This document shows, piece by piece, positions 1,409 to 25,333 of a stretch of 27,939 nt of DNA. The stretch is from a virus (lineage: Duplodnaviria > Caudoviricetes): the IMG/VR virus record IMGVR_UViG_3300020172_001350, positions 1 through 27,939 of that record. The stretch is one strand, 5' to 3'. Every line of letters starts with the position of its first letter. Within the stretch, counting starts at the first letter, position 1. A program made the translations under genes and the position numbers. The notes under the pieces are model-generated. The model worked only from the letters and a program-made list of their open reading frames with translations. It made no database searches and was not told the origin of the DNA.

Positions 1409-1660
1409 TTATACTGTCTCCACTGTGTATCCTGCGGCCTCTAGGCCAGCCTTCTCGCCTGCGCTAACGTCATAAGTCATCCCACCTAAGTAGAATGCCT
1501 CTGCCTCTTCTATCTCTTCACTAGAAGGGTTTCTGACCTCATAATATTCCCCATCAACTTTAATAACGCTAACCCCACGTGTAAGGCGATAGCGACTAAA
1601 AAGCGGTCCTTCACCAGCAGGGCCTTCACTAATTGTTGGTGTTGTAAATCTGTATGTCAT
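1409..1660 (-). CDS. Hypothetical acidic protein immediately downstream of the capsid gene
   Basis: 83-aa ORF with strong AGGAGGT SD. Confidence 0.8.
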   Translation of the reverse strand: MTYRFTTPTISEGPAGEGPLFSRYRLTRGVSVIKVDGEYYEVRNPSSEEIEEAEAFYLGGMTYDVSAGEKAGLEAAGYTVETV

Positions 1661-1683
1661 GCGACCTCCTAAGTCGTTTTACT

Positions 1684-1711
1684 GATGAGTAGGGGTTGCC
1701 CCCTACCCACC
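1684..1711 (-). terminator. Stem-loop after the major capsid gene (terminator/attenuator or 3' stabiliser)
   Basis: Minus strand GGTGGGTAGGGG-GCAA-CCCCTACTCATC: 12-bp stem with G-U pairs and a GNRA loop, 16 nt after the stop codon; no U-tract. Confidence 0.6.
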
Positions 1712-1727
1712 CGTCTAATTACTTAGA

Positions 1728-2915
1728 TTATGGACGAACTGATGAAGCGGTCTCGATGCGGTATAGCGCCTCTTGACGGAAGATAGACCAGTTGATCATA
1801 CCGTGCCAGCCGACTGGGCGGAAACGGTTCAACTTGTCTACAACGTTACCAAACTCAATGCCTGGTTCCTTCCATACTGCCTCAGCAAGTGCTTGCTGTC
1901 CGAGTACGTAAGTGTTGTAAACGCGAGCCTTAGGTGTAACTGTAAGTGTGTTTGTTCCAACAGTTCCTGAGTTAGCGACAGACACTGTAAATGTAGTGTT
2001 TGTAGCGCCAACTTCAATTGCTGTAATCAAAGCACCAGATCCTACGTTAGTACCTGAGATAGCATCGCCAACCTCAGCAAGACCACCGAATGCAGCGTTG
2101 GCTGCAACGATAGTAAATGCACCTGATGCACCGCTTACTGCAGAAGCAGTAGCAAGTGCTGTTAGAGCACCACCTGAGATTGAGTTAGTCATGCGTGGTG
2201 TCTCGATGAAACGGACACCTTCCCATGCGCCGAGTTCTCCTGCAAGGAGTGGCCCAACGTTCTGGTACTCATGTGGTGTACGCCAGATGTTGTTTCCTGT
2301 CTCTGTACGGAGATCATGTGAAACTTCTGGGTGGATGTATGAAACATACATTCCGCCACGGGTTAGGACGTTTGCAGCGCGTAACTTTGTTACTGCGTAA
2401 CGTACGTCGCGTCCCTTGAATGTGTCTGATGCAACAATTGTGCTCTTAGCAGCAGTTGTTGAAAGCGAACCAGCAGACTCACGGATGACGTTTGTACCTG
2501 CATCTAGAACAGCGGCAATACCGTTGTCTAGTGTTGTTGCCATGTTGAACGCAACTGCGTTAGCAATCCATGGATCAACATCTGAAAGTGACATAAGTGC
2601 CAACTTGCGTGTTGGAAGTACGACGCGACCTAGTTCTTGCTGTGTAACATCAAGAGTTGTGGTCGCTGGTAGTGCTACTGCATCTGGATCTACAGTTTCA
2701 GCGAGTGTTGCACCAGCGATTGTGGTGTCAGCAATATCGTTGTAGAACTGGAAACGGATTGAAGAACCGTCGTGAGTTGGGTTTCCGATCTTCTTGTCTG
2801 CGATTGCGCGGAACTGTGGTGTTGAACGTAAGTTGAGTTCGATCAACTTGTCGTACGCCATGGTTACAAGATTGGAACCTAACCCAGAGGTTGTGGTTGA
2901 AAAGACATCAGGCAT
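1728..2915 (-). CDS. Major capsid protein (HK97 fold, N4-gp56/podovirus-like)
   Basis: 395 aa, directly after the scaffold, strong AGAAAGGAG SD. Motifs YVSYIHPEVSHDLR, GELGAWEGVRFIETP and DKLNRFRPVGW are typical of this capsid group. Confidence 0.9.
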   Translation of the reverse strand: MPDVFSTTTSGLGSNLVTMAYDKLIELNLRSTPQFRAIADKKIGNPTHDGSSIRFQFYNDIADTTIAGATLAETVDPDAVALPATTTLDVTQQELGRVVLPTRKLALMSLSDVDPWIANAVAFNMATTLDNGIAAVLDAGTNVIRESAGSLSTTAAKSTIVASDTFKGRDVRYAVTKLRAANVLTRGGMYVSYIHPEVSHDLRTETGNNIWRTPHEYQNVGPLLAGELGAWEGVRFIETPRMTNSISGGALTALATASAVSGASGAFTIVAANAAFGGLAEVGDAISGTNVGSGALITAIEVGATNTTFTVSVANSGTVGTNTLTVTPKARVYNTYVLGQQALAEAVWKEPGIEFGNVVDKLNRFRPVGWHGMINWSIFRQEALYRIETASSVRP

Positions 2916-2948
2916 TTGCTGATATCTCCTTTCTGGTTAGTTTGCGGT

Positions 2949-3428
2949 TTATTGACCGCTGAGAATTGTTAGGATTTCTTCCTCAGAAGATGCATTCGCT
3001 AGGCGATTTGCAATATCATCCGAAGCCCCTGGTGCTTCTGCATTAGTCAGCAGATTGTTCATCTTCTGTATTGAAGCGATATCTTCTTGAGATACCTTTG
3101 GAGCGTCCTGTTGAATACCGAACACGTCGGCATACTGGTCGATCCATGCGGAAATTGCTTCCTCGCTTGCTTCGATATCATTTGGAACAAATGCTGCGAT
3201 CTTTGCGTTGACTCCACGGGATGTAAAAACATCTTTTAGAATCCGCTCTTTCTGAGTCTTACTCAGTTCTCCTAGGTTGCTCTCTAGTTCTTTTGCTCTA
3301 CGTTGCTCGGCCTTTAGCGCTTTGCGGAGTTTCTTTACTAGATCGGTATCGTTGTCGTATGTCGGGGTGTAATCCTCGTCATCTTCGTCGTCGATGTCCC
3401 AGTTGATGTTGTCGCGGTTGTTGCTCAT
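2949..3428 (-). CDS. Capsid scaffolding protein (likely start MSNNRD at 3428)
   Basis: Acidic N-terminus, coiled-coil (DLVKKLRKALKAEQRRAKELE), C-terminal helix; immediately upstream of the capsid gene; AAGGGAGAGG SD before ATG 3428. Confidence 0.8.
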   Translation of the reverse strand: MSNNRDNINWDIDDEDDEDYTPTYDNDTDLVKKLRKALKAEQRRAKELESNLGELSKTQKERILKDVFTSRGVNAKIAAFVPNDIEASEEAISAWIDQYADVFGIQQDAPKVSQEDIASIQKMNNLLTNAEAPGASDDIANRLANASSEEEILTILSGQ

Positions 3429-3456
3429 AGCAACCTCTCCCTTGTTAGTAGTTGGC

Positions 3457-3537
3457 GTACGCCTCAAGATTGGAAGGGGATCCAAGTTGGCTCGTACTAT
3501 CGGTCTTATACACCACTGGGGCCGATAGGTCCAGTGG
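3457..3537 (-). promoter_or_regulatory. Structured RNA leader of the scaffold/capsid genes (predicted H-type pseudoknot plus hairpin)
   Basis: Stem 1 CCACUGG/CCAGUGG (3537-3531 / 3519-3513). Its loop CUAUCGG (3528-3522) is perfectly complementary to CCGAUAG (3503-3497). Downstream stems GUACG/CGUAC and UUGGA/UCCAA. Confidence 0.55.
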
Positions 3538-3544
3538 AATTCTT

Positions 3545-4849
3545 TTATACTATTCCGAGTGCGGAAGTTGTTCCTAGAGAACCACCTGAACCACGGCTAG
3601 CACCAATAGTGCCTGACCTGCGCTGGAAGGCAAGTTCTTCTTGCTCTTTACGGCGCTTGCGTAATTCAGAGGCTGTTCCCTTAAACTGCTCTTCTTCTAG
3701 TTGGGTCTGAATCGCTTTTTGATCGATTCCAACACCATAAATCTGTTCTAGTTTTGTAAGTGGCTGGAGAGTCTGAGCAATGGTTTCAAATCCTTGTGCA
3801 GCCGTTGCCTCTGCGTCTGCAACACCACTTGTAGTAGCAGCGAGTTGCTTAATACGGGCTGCATCAAATGTGATTCCAGACTCTGCTCTCTTGAGAGCCT
3901 GCTTACCAAATGCTGCTGTCTTAGCGTTGATCTCGAACTGTTCCTGACCGATCTTAGGATCAAGGTAGAAATCAGCAAGATCTTCTGTGTTATTGATAAA
4001 GCCTAGAGCCTTGAGTGTCTTAACTTCATTAGGGTCAGCCTCAAGTGTCTTGAGTGCTGCTGTAGCAAAACGCTGATCTAGGTCTGTAATACGCACACCA
4101 TTGGCTACATACTGCTCTAGTGATGCGCGCTCAGCAAATTTAGAACTACGTCCATAACGAGATACTAGGCTCTTGACGCCAAGTGAGAACTCCATGAGTT
4201 CTTTTGGTGTAGGAGTAAAGCGAGGATCTCCCTTATAGTTCTCTTTGAGAGATGTGAACTCAGCGTAGAAAGGAGATGCTAATTTAATACCATTCTTGGT
4301 GGTATATTCCTTGTTGTTGTACAAAATCTCAATAGCATTCGGCATTTCCATGTCATCATTCATAAGAGATTCAACAAAGTTAATTGAACTATCAATGATT
4401 GAATCAGGGAAGTTAAGTTGCTTTAGTCTTGCCTTAATCAACTGTGATGCGTTAGTTGGCGCTGATGTTGCTACAGTCTTATTGCCGCCGCCAAGATTAG
4501 ATCCTGCAGTGATTTGATTAAACAAGTCTGCACGAGCAGCACTTGTATCTGCTGGCTTAGGTCCTTGGAGCACAAGGCCACCGGTGCTTACACTTGTTCC
4601 AGCCTTAGGACCAGATGTATAAACTTCTTCCACGAGACCTTGGTTGTTAAATATAAAAGCAGTCTCAGCAGGAACGGGAATTGCTGTTGGTCCTACAAAT
4701 CCAGCCTGTCCTGGTTGCTTTGTCTGTGCAGGCATCTTGATTGCTGGCTTGAATCCAGGGATTATATTTGGGTTTGCAACCTTTGCTAATGCTGCCTGTG
4801 CTTTCTTAAGGTCTGCTGCCGCTTTTGCTAGTTGTGCTTTAGTTGCCAT
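3545..4849 (-). CDS. Probable internal virion (ejection) protein, 434 aa
   Basis: Ala/Gln-rich, helical-looking, no Cys, Gly-rich C-terminus; one of three consecutive large ORFs in the structural module. Function inferred from context. Confidence 0.6.
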   Translation of the reverse strand: MATKAQLAKAAADLKKAQAALAKVANPNIIPGFKPAIKMPAQTKQPGQAGFVGPTAIPVPAETAFIFNNQGLVEEVYTSGPKAGTSVSTGGLVLQGPKPADTSAARADLFNQITAGSNLGGGNKTVATSAPTNASQLIKARLKQLNFPDSIIDSSINFVESLMNDDMEMPNAIEILYNNKEYTTKNGIKLASPFYAEFTSLKENYKGDPRFTPTPKELMEFSLGVKSLVSRYGRSSKFAERASLEQYVANGVRITDLDQRFATAALKTLEADPNEVKTLKALGFINNTEDLADFYLDPKIGQEQFEINAKTAAFGKQALKRAESGITFDAARIKQLAATTSGVADAEATAAQGFETIAQTLQPLTKLEQIYGVGIDQKAIQTQLEEEQFKGTASELRKRRKEQEELAFQRRSGTIGASRGSGGSLGTTSALGIV

Positions 4850-6018
4850 TACTTGAGCCCCTGTTCAAATGCATCTGCGATATCCATAGCACGGTTCTTG
4901 CCGTAGGCGCTAGTTGCAAACTCTGGTTGCTTTCTCGCCCACTTCTCGATTTCGATAGCGTTGGCTGTGCGGATGTTAGTTCCATCGTTATAGTTAACAA
5001 GTTCCTTGATACGTGGATCGTTATATGCAATACTTGTGCCTAGGTATGAGTTAATAGCCTGTGAGATAGGTGCAGCAATAGTTCTAATATCTGTACCAGC
5101 GCCAAGAATGTCTGCTGCTCCTGGGTGCATCTTTGCAGCAACCATGCGTACTGACTGCAATTTAGCGTCAATCTTCTGCTTGTACATCTCAGGATCACCA
5201 GTTCCAATTGCATTTGCTGCGAATGTGGTTAGTTCTTCTAGAGGTGGTACTGGAATTAGGTTATCTTCGTAGACTCTTTTTAGGTCACTAATGATAGTAG
5301 AAACACGACCAGACTCTTCTTTGCCTGTAATCTTGTAGTTATTTTTGAGGAACTTAGCGATAAACTGTTGCTGTTCCTGTTCTGTGAATCCCATACCCTG
5401 TGTAACTGTCTTGCTTCTTGCAGCAGTAGATGTATCTGTACCAGATGTGGAACGTGTGGTTGTGGTTTCAGCCAACTGGCGCTGTGCCTCTGCAGCGTAG
5501 CGAGTCTTAAAATTCTCGATCTGCTTGTTGTTAGGCATTACACCAAAAGCGCCATAGTATGCCTTAGATAGGATACTCTCAGCATCTGTCTTATCGATCA
5601 ATGTGAGGGCTGTAGATACTTCTTTAGAGAACTTAGGACCTGTTGATGAAGAAGCATAGGGGCTTTGAGCCTGTTTATTTACCCATTCTATCCAGTCAAT
5701 ACCATCAAGATATGATAACTTATAGACTTCTTTCATAGCAGCAATATCTTGTGTATCAGACATACCTAAAACACCAGTAGACTTAGACATACCCATCTTA
5801 CGGACAATAGCCTGGAAGTATGCATAATCTGACATGCCTGCCTTAATAGTGCTTTTATTCTTTAGCGCATCGAATTCTGCTGCTGCTGATTGTGCAAAGT
5901 TTTCAGTCTGCTGTGACCAAGCCTTAAAATAAACGCTTCCCTCAGAACGGATATAAGCGGCAGCCTTCTGTTCAGGTGTCTGTTGTGTACCTGTTGCTGG
6001 ACCTGATTGGTAAACCAC
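4849..6018 (-). CDS. Probable internal virion (ejection) protein, 389 aa
   Basis: GTG start with AGGAG SD; TAATG coupling to the downstream ORF; helical composition. Function inferred from context. Confidence 0.6.
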   Translation of the reverse strand: MVYQSGPATGTQQTPEQKAAAYIRSEGSVYFKAWSQQTENFAQSAAAEFDALKNKSTIKAGMSDYAYFQAIVRKMGMSKSTGVLGMSDTQDIAAMKEVYKLSYLDGIDWIEWVNKQAQSPYASSSTGPKFSKEVSTALTLIDKTDAESILSKAYYGAFGVMPNNKQIENFKTRYAAEAQRQLAETTTTRSTSGTDTSTAARSKTVTQGMGFTEQEQQQFIAKFLKNNYKITGKEESGRVSTIISDLKRVYEDNLIPVPPLEELTTFAANAIGTGDPEMYKQKIDAKLQSVRMVAAKMHPGAADILGAGTDIRTIAAPISQAINSYLGTSIAYNDPRIKELVNYNDGTNIRTANAIEIEKWARKQPEFATSAYGKNRAMDIADAFEQGLK

Positions 6019-18166: not shown

Positions 18167-19630
18167 ATGACTCTAACCCTAGATGATGTAGTCACCTGCA
18201 ATACATGGGGCTATGTCTCAACTGGTAGATGCGGCAACTGTCGCACTTACCAAGAACTATATGTAATCTCGATCATGAAAGACTCTCAAGAAGTGTGCGT
18301 GAACTGCCTCATGGCTAACCTTCGAGAAGTCTATCGCTACGGCGATATACTCACCGAGGAAGCACTCTACGCCGTCAGAGATAGCCGTCCTCGTCCAGAG
18401 GCCGACACTATCACTTGCTACTCATGCGAAGGCGTGAGTGACGGCACGACTGATCTAGTCGCTACATGGAACGGCAACGGGGAAGAAGTGTATGTCCACG
18501 ATAACTCGGACTGCTCCAAGTGGTGCGAGCGTTGTAGCACTCAGCATCCACGATATAACTGGCGCGTAGGTAGTTTCTATGCTGGTGATCTAGTCTTTCA
18601 GAACTTCGAGAAGATATTCGGTCAAGAGTGTTGCCAGAAGTGCCAAGAAGAACTCTTTGCCGATGCTGGTGGCTCGGATAATTTCTTCCACTGTCCAGCA
18701 TGTGAGAGCATGGAGATCCTAGACGATAGCGCCTACTTCAACGGCACTCGATACTGCGAGTCATGCTACGACAACTGTGTCTATACATGCGACGACTGTG
18801 GCGATCAGTATTGGGACGGCGACGGGCATCATTGCGAGGAAGATGGGTCTCACCTCATCAACTCGTACTCGTACAAGCCTCGCCCGTATTTCTTCGGCAC
18901 TGCTACCTATCACATGGGCTTCGAGTTAGAAGTCGAGTCTGACGGCAACTCCATCAGAGATGGTGCAGAAGTCGTGAGCAACGCTCTCGGTGAGCGTATC
19001 TATCTCAAAGAGGACGGCTCTCTCAATCAAGGCTTCGAGATCGTCACTCATCCCCACTCACTCGATGAGTACCAGCAGAAGTTCGATTGGTCGGCACTGC
19101 GACAACTTCGCAGGCTCGGCTTCCGTTCATGGGATACCAGTACATGCGGCCTGCATGTCCACGTATCACGCACTGCCTTCGGCTTCGCTCACAAGCGATC
19201 AGATATCGTCAAGGTTCAGGCTCATGAGTTACGCTTCATGAAACTGATCTACGACAATGATCGCCAGATCAGTAGGCTGGCCGGCCGTACCTCATCCTTT
19301 GCAACCTTCGAGGATAAGGGTCGCCTAGTTAGCAAGGTCAAGCATGGCAACCAAGAAAATGGTCGCTATTCTGCAATCAACTCCGAGAACTCGGAGACTC
19401 TCGAGGTTCGAGTGTTCAGAGGATCGCTCAAGCCTGAGCGTGTACTCATGGCACTAGAACTCGTTCAGTGTGCTGTCGAGTACACTCGCAACCTACATGT
19501 GAGCGCCAGTAATAAGGCTCTCTCATGGATGATGTTCACTCGGTATGTCGCAGACAATACCTCAACCTATCCGCACCTATTCACAGCCATGGAGAAGTCC
19601 TTCATGTCTGATTCAGTCCAAGAAAACTAA
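18167..19630 (+). CDS. Putative amidoligase (COOH-NH2 ligase, Amidoligase_2-like) with N-terminal Cys-rich Zn-ribbon repeats
   Basis: Motifs GFELEVE, KEDGSL..GFEIVTHP, TCGLHVHVS, RYSAIN, TLEVRVFRGSL; about eight CxxC pairs in the first ~225 aa; GAAAGGA SD. Confidence 0.88.
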   Translation: MTLTLDDVVTCNTWGYVSTGRCGNCRTYQELYVISIMKDSQEVCVNCLMANLREVYRYGDILTEEALYAVRDSRPRPEADTITCYSCEGVSDGTTDLVATWNGNGEEVYVHDNSDCSKWCERCSTQHPRYNWRVGSFYAGDLVFQNFEKIFGQECCQKCQEELFADAGGSDNFFHCPACESMEILDDSAYFNGTRYCESCYDNCVYTCDDCGDQYWDGDGHHCEEDGSHLINSYSYKPRPYFFGTATYHMGFELEVESDGNSIRDGAEVVSNALGERIYLKEDGSLNQGFEIVTHPHSLDEYQQKFDWSALRQLRRLGFRSWDTSTCGLHVHVSRTAFGFAHKRSDIVKVQAHELRFMKLIYDNDRQISRLAGRTSSFATFEDKGRLVSKVKHGNQENGRYSAINSENSETLEVRVFRGSLKPERVLMALELVQCAVEYTRNLHVSASNKALSWMMFTRYVADNTSTYPHLFTAMEKSFMSDSVQEN

Positions 19631-19631
19631 G

Positions 19632-19648
19632 TGCAGGATAATCCTGCA
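19632..19648. repeat. 17-bp palindrome, copy 4
   Basis: Starts 1 bp after the amidoligase TAA stop, inside the 35-bp gap before the amidotransferase. Confidence 0.95.
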
Positions 19649-19665
19649 GAAAAGAGATATGTAAA

Positions 19666-20508
19666 ATGTGTATGCTATGTGTAATTCCACCAAACGTAAT
19701 TCCCTCACGAGACAAGTTAGAAAACTCTGCTCTCAACAATCCTCATGGCTTCGGCTTCGCTATCGTAATTCCTAGCGAGAACCGCATCCATGTAGAACGC
19801 ACCATGAACGCCGATACATCCATCAAGCGCTTCCTCGAGATGCGTGGCAAGTATCCAGAAGGCTATGCCATGTGGCATGCACGATTCGCTACGCATGGCA
19901 CGACCACTGTGGACAACTGCCATCCATTCCAAGTAGGCGTGGGTAATCAACTCACCTACCTTGCACACAATGGCGTACTGCCGATCATTGAGCCTAAGGG
20001 TGATGATCGTAGTGATACGCGTATCTTTGCTGAGGATCTACTGCCTGCAATCGGTGGGGTTACTGCCCTAGATAACCCACAAGTGTCCAACCTCATTGAG
20101 GATTTCACTAATGGTTCCAAGGTATGTATTCTCACTGTAGATCCACGCGCTGAGTATCAGTGCTATCTGTATCACGCTGAGAAGGGCAAGAAGGATGAGT
20201 CAGGGGTCTGGTGGTCTAACGATTCCTGCTATCTCGACACCTACTCAGGTGCATGGAAGTCAGTCAACCCTTTAGACTTTGGCCTCGGCTTCGGCGGTTA
20301 CTCCGACGATAAGGATGTAAAGTGGCGCGAGTGTACTGTCTGCGAAACCTATGTAGATGAGGCCATGATCGAGGACTGGGATGATCACTACTGCATGGCA
20401 TGTGGATCATGCTACGACTGCAACACTTACCTTACCGACTGCCTGTGCTATCAGGGCAAGGGTAAGACATGGGCTGCCAACGGCAAGGAAGGTGGGTGGC
20501 AACTATGA
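19666..20508 (+). CDS. Class II (Ntn) glutamine amidotransferase with C-terminal Cys-rich tail
   Basis: N-terminal nucleophile Cys2 (MCML), NPHGFG, HARFATHG, NCHPF, AHNG and SDT motifs; C-terminal CTVC / CMACGSCYDC / CLC. Confidence 0.9.
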   Translation: MCMLCVIPPNVIPSRDKLENSALNNPHGFGFAIVIPSENRIHVERTMNADTSIKRFLEMRGKYPEGYAMWHARFATHGTTTVDNCHPFQVGVGNQLTYLAHNGVLPIIEPKGDDRSDTRIFAEDLLPAIGGVTALDNPQVSNLIEDFTNGSKVCILTVDPRAEYQCYLYHAEKGKKDESGVWWSNDSCYLDTYSGAWKSVNPLDFGLGFGGYSDDKDVKWRECTVCETYVDEAMIEDWDDHYCMACGSCYDCNTYLTDCLCYQGKGKTWAANGKEGGWQL

Positions 20509-24153: not shown

Positions 24154-24496
24154 CTCCGTCTTTCTTAAGTAGTCTTTCTAGGTCGCTCATCATCTCATTC
24201 ATCTCAGAGGCTACTACTGCCTCTTCAACAAATTCTTCTAGGTCTCCCTCACTTGCATTGACCATCATGAGGGTTGCATCTTGCACGATACTCCATGCAT
24301 CATCGAGATCACCCTTGTTGACGGTCTCGTTGAGGAGGCTCAAAAACGTATATAAATCAAAGGAAAAACGCTTATTTAGGCGTACTTGCCAACCAAATTC
24401 GATGCCACAGTGATCCATAAACTCAAAGATATCTGCCGTTGCAAACGAGCACTTATCTTCACATCTAAACACGCCGTTCTTATCAGGCATTAACAT
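24140..24496 (-). CDS. Hypothetical protein with N-terminal C-x3-C...H-C metal-binding-like motif
   Basis: 118-aa ORF coupled to both neighbours. Confidence 0.7.
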   Translation of the reverse strand: MLMPDKNGVFRCEDKCSFATADIFEFMDHCGIEFGWQVRLNKRFSFDLYTFLSLLNETVNKGDLDDAWSIVQDATLMMVNASEGDLEEFVEEAVVASEMNEMMSDLERLLKKDGDEKD

Positions 24497-25116
24497 TAGG
24501 CACTCGCAATCTTCTGTTGGAAATATTCTACACCATTTGTCCGATATATGCTGTTTACATCCTCGCCCTCGGGCATGTTGACAATGGTCAGGTTAGGTAA
24601 CTCCTTAGCCAAAGACTTGCCAAAGTCAGCACCAGCGCTATCCCCATCAGCAAATAGAAATACTCTGTCGAAGTCCGAGAGAAGTCTGGTGTAATGCTTC
24701 TTCCAGTTGTTCACTCCAGGGACCCCCACCGCAGGTATCCCGCAAACTGTATCAAGTGTGATCGTGTCAATCTCACCTTCACAGATAGAAATGTATGAGG
24801 ACGCTTTGAAAAACGCACCCACGTTGTAGAGATGCGTCGTCGCCCCGCTGATCCCCATGTACTTTGGCTCTGAGTGGTCCATGGCCCTGAATCGAAGGTC
24901 AACCACCCCCGAACGTGTAAGATACGGAATCGCCAAGCGATTGACATAGGCTTCATGACCCGTGAGCGGCTCTAGCACGACGCCCAAGCGCATCTTCTGG
25001 GCCTGCTCCAGAGTTATACCCCGTTCTGCGAGGTAGTCCTCCGCTTCGTGTAATGCGCTGTGGTAGAACTTTGCCGCTCTGGTCAAAGATTCCCTTTGCA
25101 AGTGTGACTGCTTCAC
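24496..25116 (-). CDS. DNA primase, catalytic TOPRIM subunit
   Basis: ICEGEIDTIT and FADGDSAG TOPRIM motifs, RLAIPY; likely GTG start at 25116 with AAGGAG SD. Confidence 0.88.
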   Translation of the reverse strand: MKQSHLQRESLTRAAKFYHSALHEAEDYLAERGITLEQAQKMRLGVVLEPLTGHEAYVNRLAIPYLTRSGVVDLRFRAMDHSEPKYMGISGATTHLYNVGAFFKASSYISICEGEIDTITLDTVCGIPAVGVPGVNNWKKHYTRLLSDFDRVFLFADGDSAGADFGKSLAKELPNLTIVNMPEGEDVNSIYRTNGVEYFQQKIASA

Positions 25117-25333
25117 GAAAGTTAACTCCTTCTTTTTGCATAATGATAGCATACGCATCGCCTTTGTACTGGCAACCATGACACTTAAAGATGTTGTCCT
25201 TTAGGTTAACTGCAGCAGATGCATGTGAATCATCGTGGAAGGGACACTTTAGTTTAGCCCATCCACCACGGGTAGGAACCCGAGCACCGTAGTACTCGAG
25301 AATTGTTGTTATATCTGGCTTCTCAGAGTTCAT
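24953..25333 (-). CDS. DNA primase, CHC2 zinc-finger subunit
   Basis: CPFHDD...FKCHGC..KGD motif. Confidence 0.88.
   Translation of the reverse strand: MNSEKPDITTILEYYGARVPTRGGWAKLKCPFHDDSHASAAVNLKDNIFKCHGCQYKGDAYAIIMQKEGVNFREAVTLAKGIFDQSGKVLPQRITRSGGLPRRTGYNSGAGPEDALGRRARAAHGS

Follow-up and report, generated by a model that had tools for sequence, protein, structure and literature searches.

A predicted two-pseudoknot RNA leader is conserved upstream of the scaffold and capsid genes of freshwater and soil actinophages

The window, by which we mean the whole stretch of 27,939 nucleotides that was analyzed, is a 27.9-kb virus record of a tailed phage and is roughly 68% complete. It encodes a terminase, a portal, a capsid protein, a WhiB factor and a sigma factor. 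The WhiB gene points to an actinobacterial host, and the nearest cultured relatives of the capsid protein, with 40 to 50% identity, belong to Streptomyces phages of the Beephvirinae. The phage was classed as a freshwater (lake) actinophage, and the RNA element described here belongs to actinobacterial podoviruses. The leader element and the genes around it lie on the minus strand. The major capsid protein (395 amino acids; 1728..2915) matched phrog_1357 with an E value of 5.6e-60. Directly before its gene lies a gene for a protein of 159 amino acids (2949..3428; ATG at 3428), which is likely to be the head scaffolding protein on the basis of its position and of weak profile and fold matches. 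All 62 aligned homologues of this protein matched phrog_7813, with weak matches to the scaffold family phrog_648 in 17 and to Pfam PF14265 in 15 of the 62, and PF06810 was matched by one member at an E value of 0.1. The best fold match was a scaffolding protein at an E value of 0.035, none being under 0.001, and the fold model had a low global confidence (pTM, 0.36). A Leu34-Arg35 pair was invariant in the homologues. Upstream of the scaffold gene is a gene for a 434-amino-acid protein (3545..4849; phrog_8424).

A strong hairpin (1669..1726) was detected after the capsid stop codon, with a z score of −5.56 and a count of 0 in 200 shuffles. It has a GNRA cap within an outer stem, and the outer 3' arm reaches the Shine-Dalgarno (SD) sequence of the next gene. 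The outer stem was nearly invariant in close freshwater relatives and was not kept in soil members; strong stems were also present after the capsid gene in the homologues inspected, and the annotation of phage Abafar places a putative terminator at the corresponding hairpin. It is likely that this hairpin forms the 3' boundary of a scaffold-capsid mRNA, as a terminator or a protective stem, and it may additionally damp the next gene.

The leader element (3429..3544) fills the 116-base gap between the stop codon of the 434-amino-acid gene (3545) and the scaffold ATG (3428); the corresponding gap was 109 to 130 nt in 101 freshwater homologues. Model R1 matched the window at the element only (112 bits; next-best score, 11). 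Its first stem, P1 (3511..3539), starts 7 nt after the upstream stop codon and pairs 3537-3531 with 3519-3513, and its loop carries the 5' strand of an H-type pseudoknot helix, PK1. P1 gains a further, basal pair with the G of a conserved GUA (3511-3509); this pair was C-G in 90 and U-G in 13 of 118 aligned copies. PK1 (3500..3525) pairs 3525-3522 with 3503-3500 and adds C3521-G3505 across a bulged A3504; this last column was C-G in 106 copies, U-A in 7, A-U in 1, another combination in 2 and a gap in 2 (n = 118). A second hairpin, P3/P4 (3457..3497), follows. P3 pairs 3497-3493 with 3461-3457, and P4 contains a conserved AG bulge (3492-3491), a CCA (3490-3488) opposite UGAGG (3466-3462) and a variable upper stem (3487-3481 with 3474-3467) that ends in a C-rich, anti-SD-like loop (3474..3480). 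This loop is the 5' strand of a second predicted pseudoknot, PK2. Its 3' strand, AAGGGAG (3437..3443), overlaps the SD sequence GGAG (3440-3437), which lies 8 nt before the ATG. P3 is separated from the SD by an A/C-rich single-stranded linker (3444..3456) that is long in the freshwater clade and short in most soil members.

Across 164 parsed homologues (28 of 192 rows were left out of the spacing analysis as parse failures), the spacing from SD to start was 4 to 10 nt and the end of PK1 was 64 to 83 nt upstream of the start codon. The two linkers of the element traded length, with a Spearman coefficient of −0.69 over the 164, although rho was −0.06 within soil members. The element is a conserved leader of the scaffold-capsid mRNA with a predicted fold of two pseudoknots.

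A sequence-only reading of the window had described two perfect interleaved 7-bp helices (3537-3531 with 3519-3513 and 3528-3522 with 3503-3497) and a nested hairpin (GUACG, 3497-3493, with CGUAC, 3461-3457, and UUGGA, 3485-3481, with UCCAA, 3474-3470), and all of these were found on the minus strand. Dinucleotide shuffling of the 116-base gap gave two interleaved perfect 7-bp helices in 9 of 20,000 cases, and shuffling of the whole window did so in 8 of 40, so that the pattern is only moderately rare. Nested folding of 3400-3580 was unremarkable (z score, −1.14). The pattern in a single sequence was modest evidence, and the proof of the fold came from covariation.

A search with the capsid protein yielded 80 loci. 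The whole element was present in 69 of these and a part of it, at the contig end, in 3; the remaining 8 started too near the capsid gene to contain it. These loci and others from pattern scans, 154 in total, gave an alignment of 118 distinct copies with a mean identity of 62%. Selection was by hairpin motifs and an acidic downstream open reading frame; P1 and PK1 thus stayed outside the selection, which in the pattern-scan rows did include the C loop and some of P3/P4. The predicted pairs held in 90.6% of cases over 27 pairs, as compared to 74.0% for shuffles and 31 to 38% for slid registers (n = 118), and a ranking of column pairs by mutual information had helix pairs in all of the first ten places. 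P1 was paired in 86% of cases, with two-sided changes in 7 of 9 pair columns. P3 and lower P4 were 99.8% paired and had 4 pairs with two-sided changes, in columns that fall partly within the search pattern. G-U combinations outnumbered A-C combinations in the helix columns by 137 to 20, which places the fold on the mRNA strand.

The four core pairs of PK1 were paired in all 118 copies. Changes in these pairs, all four of them variable, were counted on a tree of the scaffold proteins (79 rows common to the alignment); the pairs had 9, 2, 10 and 3 changes, and 24 of 24 were two-sided. In contrast, the outer three pairs of the 7-bp helix did not covary on the tree (changes of the 5' side, 3' side and joint state of 4/13/17, 27/0/27 and 8/0/8), and G3497 belongs to P3. 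The knot helix was therefore redrawn as 4 bp plus one pair across the bulged A. The interleaved H-type knot of the sequence-only reading was thus upheld by compensatory changes in homologues, but its second helix was not conserved at the 7 bp described. As judged from these changes, the element is real and conserved.

Out-of-sample evidence was obtained with a pattern that lacked the PK1 5' strand and loop. In a metagenome sample, 93 of 116 distinct matches had the predicted PK1 complement upstream. These 93 comprised all 77 matches with a downstream scaffold gene and 16 that were cut short on the 3' side; the other 23 comprised 22 with neither complement nor scaffold and 1 cut on the 5' side. 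Of 114 matches in a viral sample, 106 had both knot and scaffold, and truncation affected the 3' side of 5 and the 5' side of 3. The original proposal of an RNA that acts in cis on the scaffold gene agreed with the presence of the knot in 77 of 77 and 106 of 106 scaffold-linked matches with an intact 5' side in these unbiased samples; occurrence before unrelated genes was tested with the freshwater-type pattern.

The suggestion that the hairpin loop (CCCUU, 3478-3474) pairs with the SD region (AAGGG, 3443-3439) also gained support. Three loop/SD states were present in a scaffold tree of 144 rows, namely, CCCC with GGG(A/U)G in 115, CCCUA with UAGGAG in 27 and CCUC with GAGAG in 2. The second count consists of 26 rows assigned by pattern and one locus (L252) that was scored as "other" but had the same sequence on reading. 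The loop changed four times, the SD changed four times and all four changes were joint, with a mismatched combination in none of the rows. The loop-SD helix, which covers the GG of the SD, is short; 90 of 147 freshwater members have 3 bp, and 30 of 44 soil members have 5 bp. Covariation of helix length beyond this core was weak in soil members (P = 0.039) and was not detected in freshwater members (P = 0.71); in the freshwater clade, the position adjacent to the core was nonetheless paired more often than in permutations (48 of 122 versus 38.8). A competing helix, in which the P3 3' strand would pair with bases just ahead of the ATG, was not adopted; its signal was weak in freshwater members (P = 0.008, from a test that was not tree aware) and absent in soil members (P = 0.89).

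Streptomyces phages and 80 soil-type loci had the same order of parts before a scaffold homologue, i.e., P1, PK1 with a bulged base, GUA, the AG bulge, a C-rich loop and the SD, and the AGC and UGG anchors of P3/P4 were kept in both the freshwater and soil clades. The link to the scaffold gene was strict and was kept despite an identity of only 17 to 25% between the soil-clade scaffolds and that of the window. A model built from freshwater copies alone matched 13 soil-type loci at the site with E values below 0.01, among 54 sources, and a second-round model matched 13 further loci among 42 sources. The models gave no match to the cultured Streptomyces records themselves, these phages being assigned by position, by an anchored parser and by model matches in near relatives, and three distant N4-like capsid loci gave no match to model R2. 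For one pattern, approximately 2,100 IMG/VR stretches were estimated, and the full-length sampled matches were all true; the element is abundant in lake actinophages. In genome collections, only two loci were found, both on phage-like contigs with a capsid gene and the full element in metagenome bins. These bins (L411 and L412) were labelled Clavibacter and Methylococcus and likely reflect phage contigs binned with unrelated genomes rather than host evidence.

The sequence upstream of the element differed between the clades. Soil members had a tRNA or tRNA-like arm directly upstream, where a loose pattern detected a T-loop in 42 of 44 and a strict one in 41, whereas a T-arm was present upstream of the element in 0 of 148 freshwater members. 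The first pair of P1 fell at tRNA position 74 to 77 in all 41 soil members with a T-loop and at position 75 in 35 of these (31 with the G of GUA). Positions 73 to 76 read ACCG in 23 and ACCA in 10. Because 52 of 179 junctions within these arrays have position 75 or 76 as the start of the following tRNA, P1 is phased to the start position of a next tRNA and the element occupies the slot of such a tRNA. Maturation of the tRNA would then leave the knot at the very 5' end of the mRNA.

Arrays of up to 22 tRNA genes separate an upstream gene from the scaffold gene in Streptomyces phage Immanuel3 (384-2332 of its locus) and in further loci (L203-L290). Many genes of these arrays abut, with 1 to 5 nt from the discriminator to the next tRNA, and most have a C at position 74. 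No tRNA arrays were found in the clade of the window. Seven loci (L245, L250, L253, L254, L263, L277 and L289) had a T-arm-like hairpin before P1; ARAGORN, with which all of these except L253 were scanned, called no tRNA there, and the hairpins are suggested to be tRNAs that have degenerated, or tRNA-like remnants, whose phase with the element has been kept. In freshwater members, P1 was preceded by an A/U-rich run and then C residues. Mycobacterial RNase E cuts just 5' of C, according to passages of PMC10641625.

Eight RNA-library runs were available as contigs, which cannot map ends. One RNA contig of 1,790 nt matched 1732-3521 end to end with no loose end, and a contig from a second study stopped at 3524, again with no loose end. 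In two runs of a third study, the RNA contig of a relative ran through the element and approximately 1.3 kb further upstream. The contig ends at 3521 and 3524 are a weak hint of a 5' end near the knot, and the through-running contig indicates that uncut or DNA-derived molecules exist. None of the eight runs covered the upstream gene at 80% likeness, but this gene is less conserved, so its lack of coverage is uninformative. There was no excess of sigma-70-like promoters near the element (4 found versus 4.0 expected in 1500-5000); the phage encodes a sigma factor and may use a promoter of its own.

Translation into the scaffold gene from upstream, by readthrough or −1 frameshifting, was rejected. 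The scaffold frame was random relative to the stop codon of the upstream gene across homologues (40/27/34 in the three frames) and was open back to this stop in 11 of 101. The distance from the stop to the knot was 15 to 25 nt among homologues. The scaffold frame of the window is open through the whole element (2949-3485), so gene callers can extend the protein to 169 to 178 amino acids. As the open frame is not conserved (11 of 101), a 178-amino-acid version from a TTG (3485) inside the RNA element and the 169- to 178-amino-acid database versions are likely mis-starts, the ATG at 3428 being the true start.

Comparison with Rfam 15 gave 0 matches at the gathering score in the window and, to an E value of 10, nothing over the element in the window or in 16 homologous loci. 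An Rfam check had been proposed with the sequence-only reading and found no family for the element; the unmatched families included GP20-a, GP20-b, Mu-gpT-DE, HDV-like ribozymes and riboswitches. GP20-a (RF02991), GP20-b (RF03003) and six further candidate RNAs precede GP20 genes, as described in section 2.5 of PMC10690425. The GP20 gene family is now Phage_scaffold (PF06810) in Pfam. Like the GP20 leaders, the element is a structured RNA of approximately 70 to 110 nt directly before a phage scaffold-family gene; structured RNA lies within 25 nt of the scaffold start and includes the SD. Unlike GP20-a and GP20-b, which gave no model match to an E value of 10, it precedes phrog_7813 and occurs in phages of actinobacterial hosts. 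The six further candidates were set beside the element by description only.

Literature searches found the motif undescribed, with the model archives of PMC10690425 and the supplement of PMC5737381 not readable. Term searches of the main texts of PMC5737381, PMC11109978 and bioRxiv 2026.09.22.753630 did not find the motif, three text files of the PMC10690425 supplements lacked six short motifs and a fourth lacked the contig-id stems and domain name. The motif may be an unnamed candidate of PMC10690425 or PMC5737381. The literature searched also returned nothing on a class of phage RNAs that activate translation. Structured RNAs before GP20-type scaffold genes and pseudoknot operators are known kinds, and this element is uncatalogued in Rfam.

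A closer parallel in layout was provided by the T4 gene 32 mRNA. Passages of PMC3014915 describe an RNase E cut at −71 and a pseudoknot at −67, which nucleates binding of gp32, the product of the gene itself; this message is the most stable T4 mRNA. The element likewise has a conserved H-type pseudoknot, a feature of autogenous operators, approximately 70 nt before the start codon with single-stranded sequence after it. The cut a few bases 5' of the knot, the stable message and the self-control of gene 32 are properties that we infer for the element. In contrast to gene 32, the element has a second, bulged hairpin between the knot and the start that pairs with the SD, and the downstream gene encodes a scaffold rather than a protein that binds single-stranded DNA; no sequence relation was found. 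The order of scaffold gene before coat gene is shared with P22, in which the scaffold N-terminus has been implicated in autoregulation and feedback by free scaffold through it proposed (passages of bioRxiv 2022.12.13.520362), but no homology is shown to the P22 protein or RNA.

Taken together, the comparisons favor a mechanism like that of T4 gene 32, to which we assign a probability of roughly 0.45, in which a processed, knot-capped scaffold-capsid mRNA has its SD knot held shut by free scaffold on the bulged helix. A host nuclease would cut just 5' of P1, this cut being tRNA 3'-end processing in soil phages and, in lake phages, falling within the A/U-rich run that precedes the C residues, and PK1 would be left at the 5' end as the shield of a stable message. 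Free scaffold would bind the conserved bulged helix and hold the loop-SD knot shut. When scaffold is in excess over coat protein, translation of scaffold would fall, and uptake of scaffold by procapsids would allow it to recover. By this analogy, the element likely limits the amount of scaffold protein made. Covariation supports the fold, the loop-SD pairing and the place before the scaffold gene, and the cutting, binding and direction of control are the conjectural steps of this scheme. The AG bulge and UGG, invariant in both clades, look like a recognition site. The scaffolds are far more diverged than the RNA, which would fit a host partner as well as scaffold.

Matching of scaffold to coat protein in P22 is known genetically, and no defined RNA structure for it was found in the literature searched. 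The present element is a candidate operator that is compact, covaries well and comes with compensatory variants from nature, and its occurrence in cultured Streptomyces phages makes it directly testable. It also suggests that a phage tRNA array may act as a punctuation mark that defines the capsid mRNA, which would be a use of phage tRNA genes beyond decoding.

An unlikely reading, modelled on tisB, dispenses with a phage protein; PK1 and the A/C-rich linker would recruit S1 and the 30S subunit, which opens the SD knot, and processing would switch translation on. PMC7708055 and PMC11228461 describe 5' pseudoknots in tisB +42 and timP, far upstream of a sequestered ribosome site and, for tisB, on a processed mRNA. 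The 5' pseudoknot, single-stranded linker and sequestered SD of this precedent are all present in the element, and the trade in linker length keeps PK1 64 to 83 nt from the start. However, this trade-off is a between-clade effect, and the invariant bulged helix and the exclusive link to a single gene are left unexplained by standby binding. In tisB and timP, activation by the knot goes through S1 standby and is under the control of an antisense RNA; for the element, no antisense partner was seen.

It is rather unlikely that the element is a ligand-free stability device and fixed damper, with PK1 blocking 5' decay of the cut mRNA and the SD knot lowering scaffold output relative to capsid by a constant factor. 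The phasing with tRNAs, the contig ends and the strong hairpin after the capsid gene fit such a device, as does an SD helix whose weakness would let it breathe. On the other hand, a weaker SD could give constant damping, and a recognition site, which the invariant AG bulge and UGG resemble, would have no role in it.

An improbable variant makes the first knot the processing element itself, as a new self-cleaving ribozyme or a mimic of a tRNA read by RNase P. It would sit in the slot of a next tRNA, mature the tRNA 3' end, release the capsid message, be retained in the tRNA-less lake phages and be coupled to the SD-pairing switch. It is quite improbable that the element belongs to an undescribed class of self-cleaving ribozymes and, by a cut at its 5' end, frees both tRNA and capsid message. 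In HDV-like ribozymes, a P3-L3 hairpin separates the 5' strand of P2 from the 3' strand of P1, and there is in addition a P1.1. At the corresponding place, from the 5' strand of PK1 to the 3' strand of P1, the predicted folds have 0 to 3 nt, leaving no room for the hairpin, so an HDV or theta ribozyme was rejected; the fold did not support self-cleavage, for which a test had been proposed with the sequence-only reading, by an HDV-like ribozyme. No Rfam ribozyme matched to an E value of 10, and within the same arrays, internal tRNA junctions that lack such an element are just as tight. On the other side, the element has several invariant unpaired bases, its upstream context varies (tRNA or stop codon) and in soil phages (T-loop in 41 or 42 of 44) it adjoins a tRNA 3' end. 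Theta ribozymes beside phage tRNAs, as described in passages of PMC10879173, are likewise pseudoknotted RNAs that start at a tRNA 3' end, a feature confined here to the soil clade; a J4/2 cytosine is a feature of HDV-like and theta ribozymes in the same source. Unlike these RNAs of gut phages, the element of soil and lake actinophages lacks the HDV topology and runs into an SD-pairing hairpin.

A small-molecule riboswitch that controls the SD through pseudoknot formation is highly improbable, for although the loop-SD pseudoknot and the invariant bulge present here are of a type common in translational riboswitches, the element always precedes a structural gene of these phages, the two genome-collection loci are phage-like contigs and no Rfam riboswitch matched.

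Two observations were made elsewhere in the window. The primase appears as two overlapping open reading frames on the minus strand (24496-25333), a zinc-finger part (24953-25333) and a Toprim part (24496-25179), which may represent a split gene or a recoding site. On the plus strand, beside WhiB, two adjoining genes at 18167-20508 resemble those of an amidoligase and of a class II glutamine amidotransferase.
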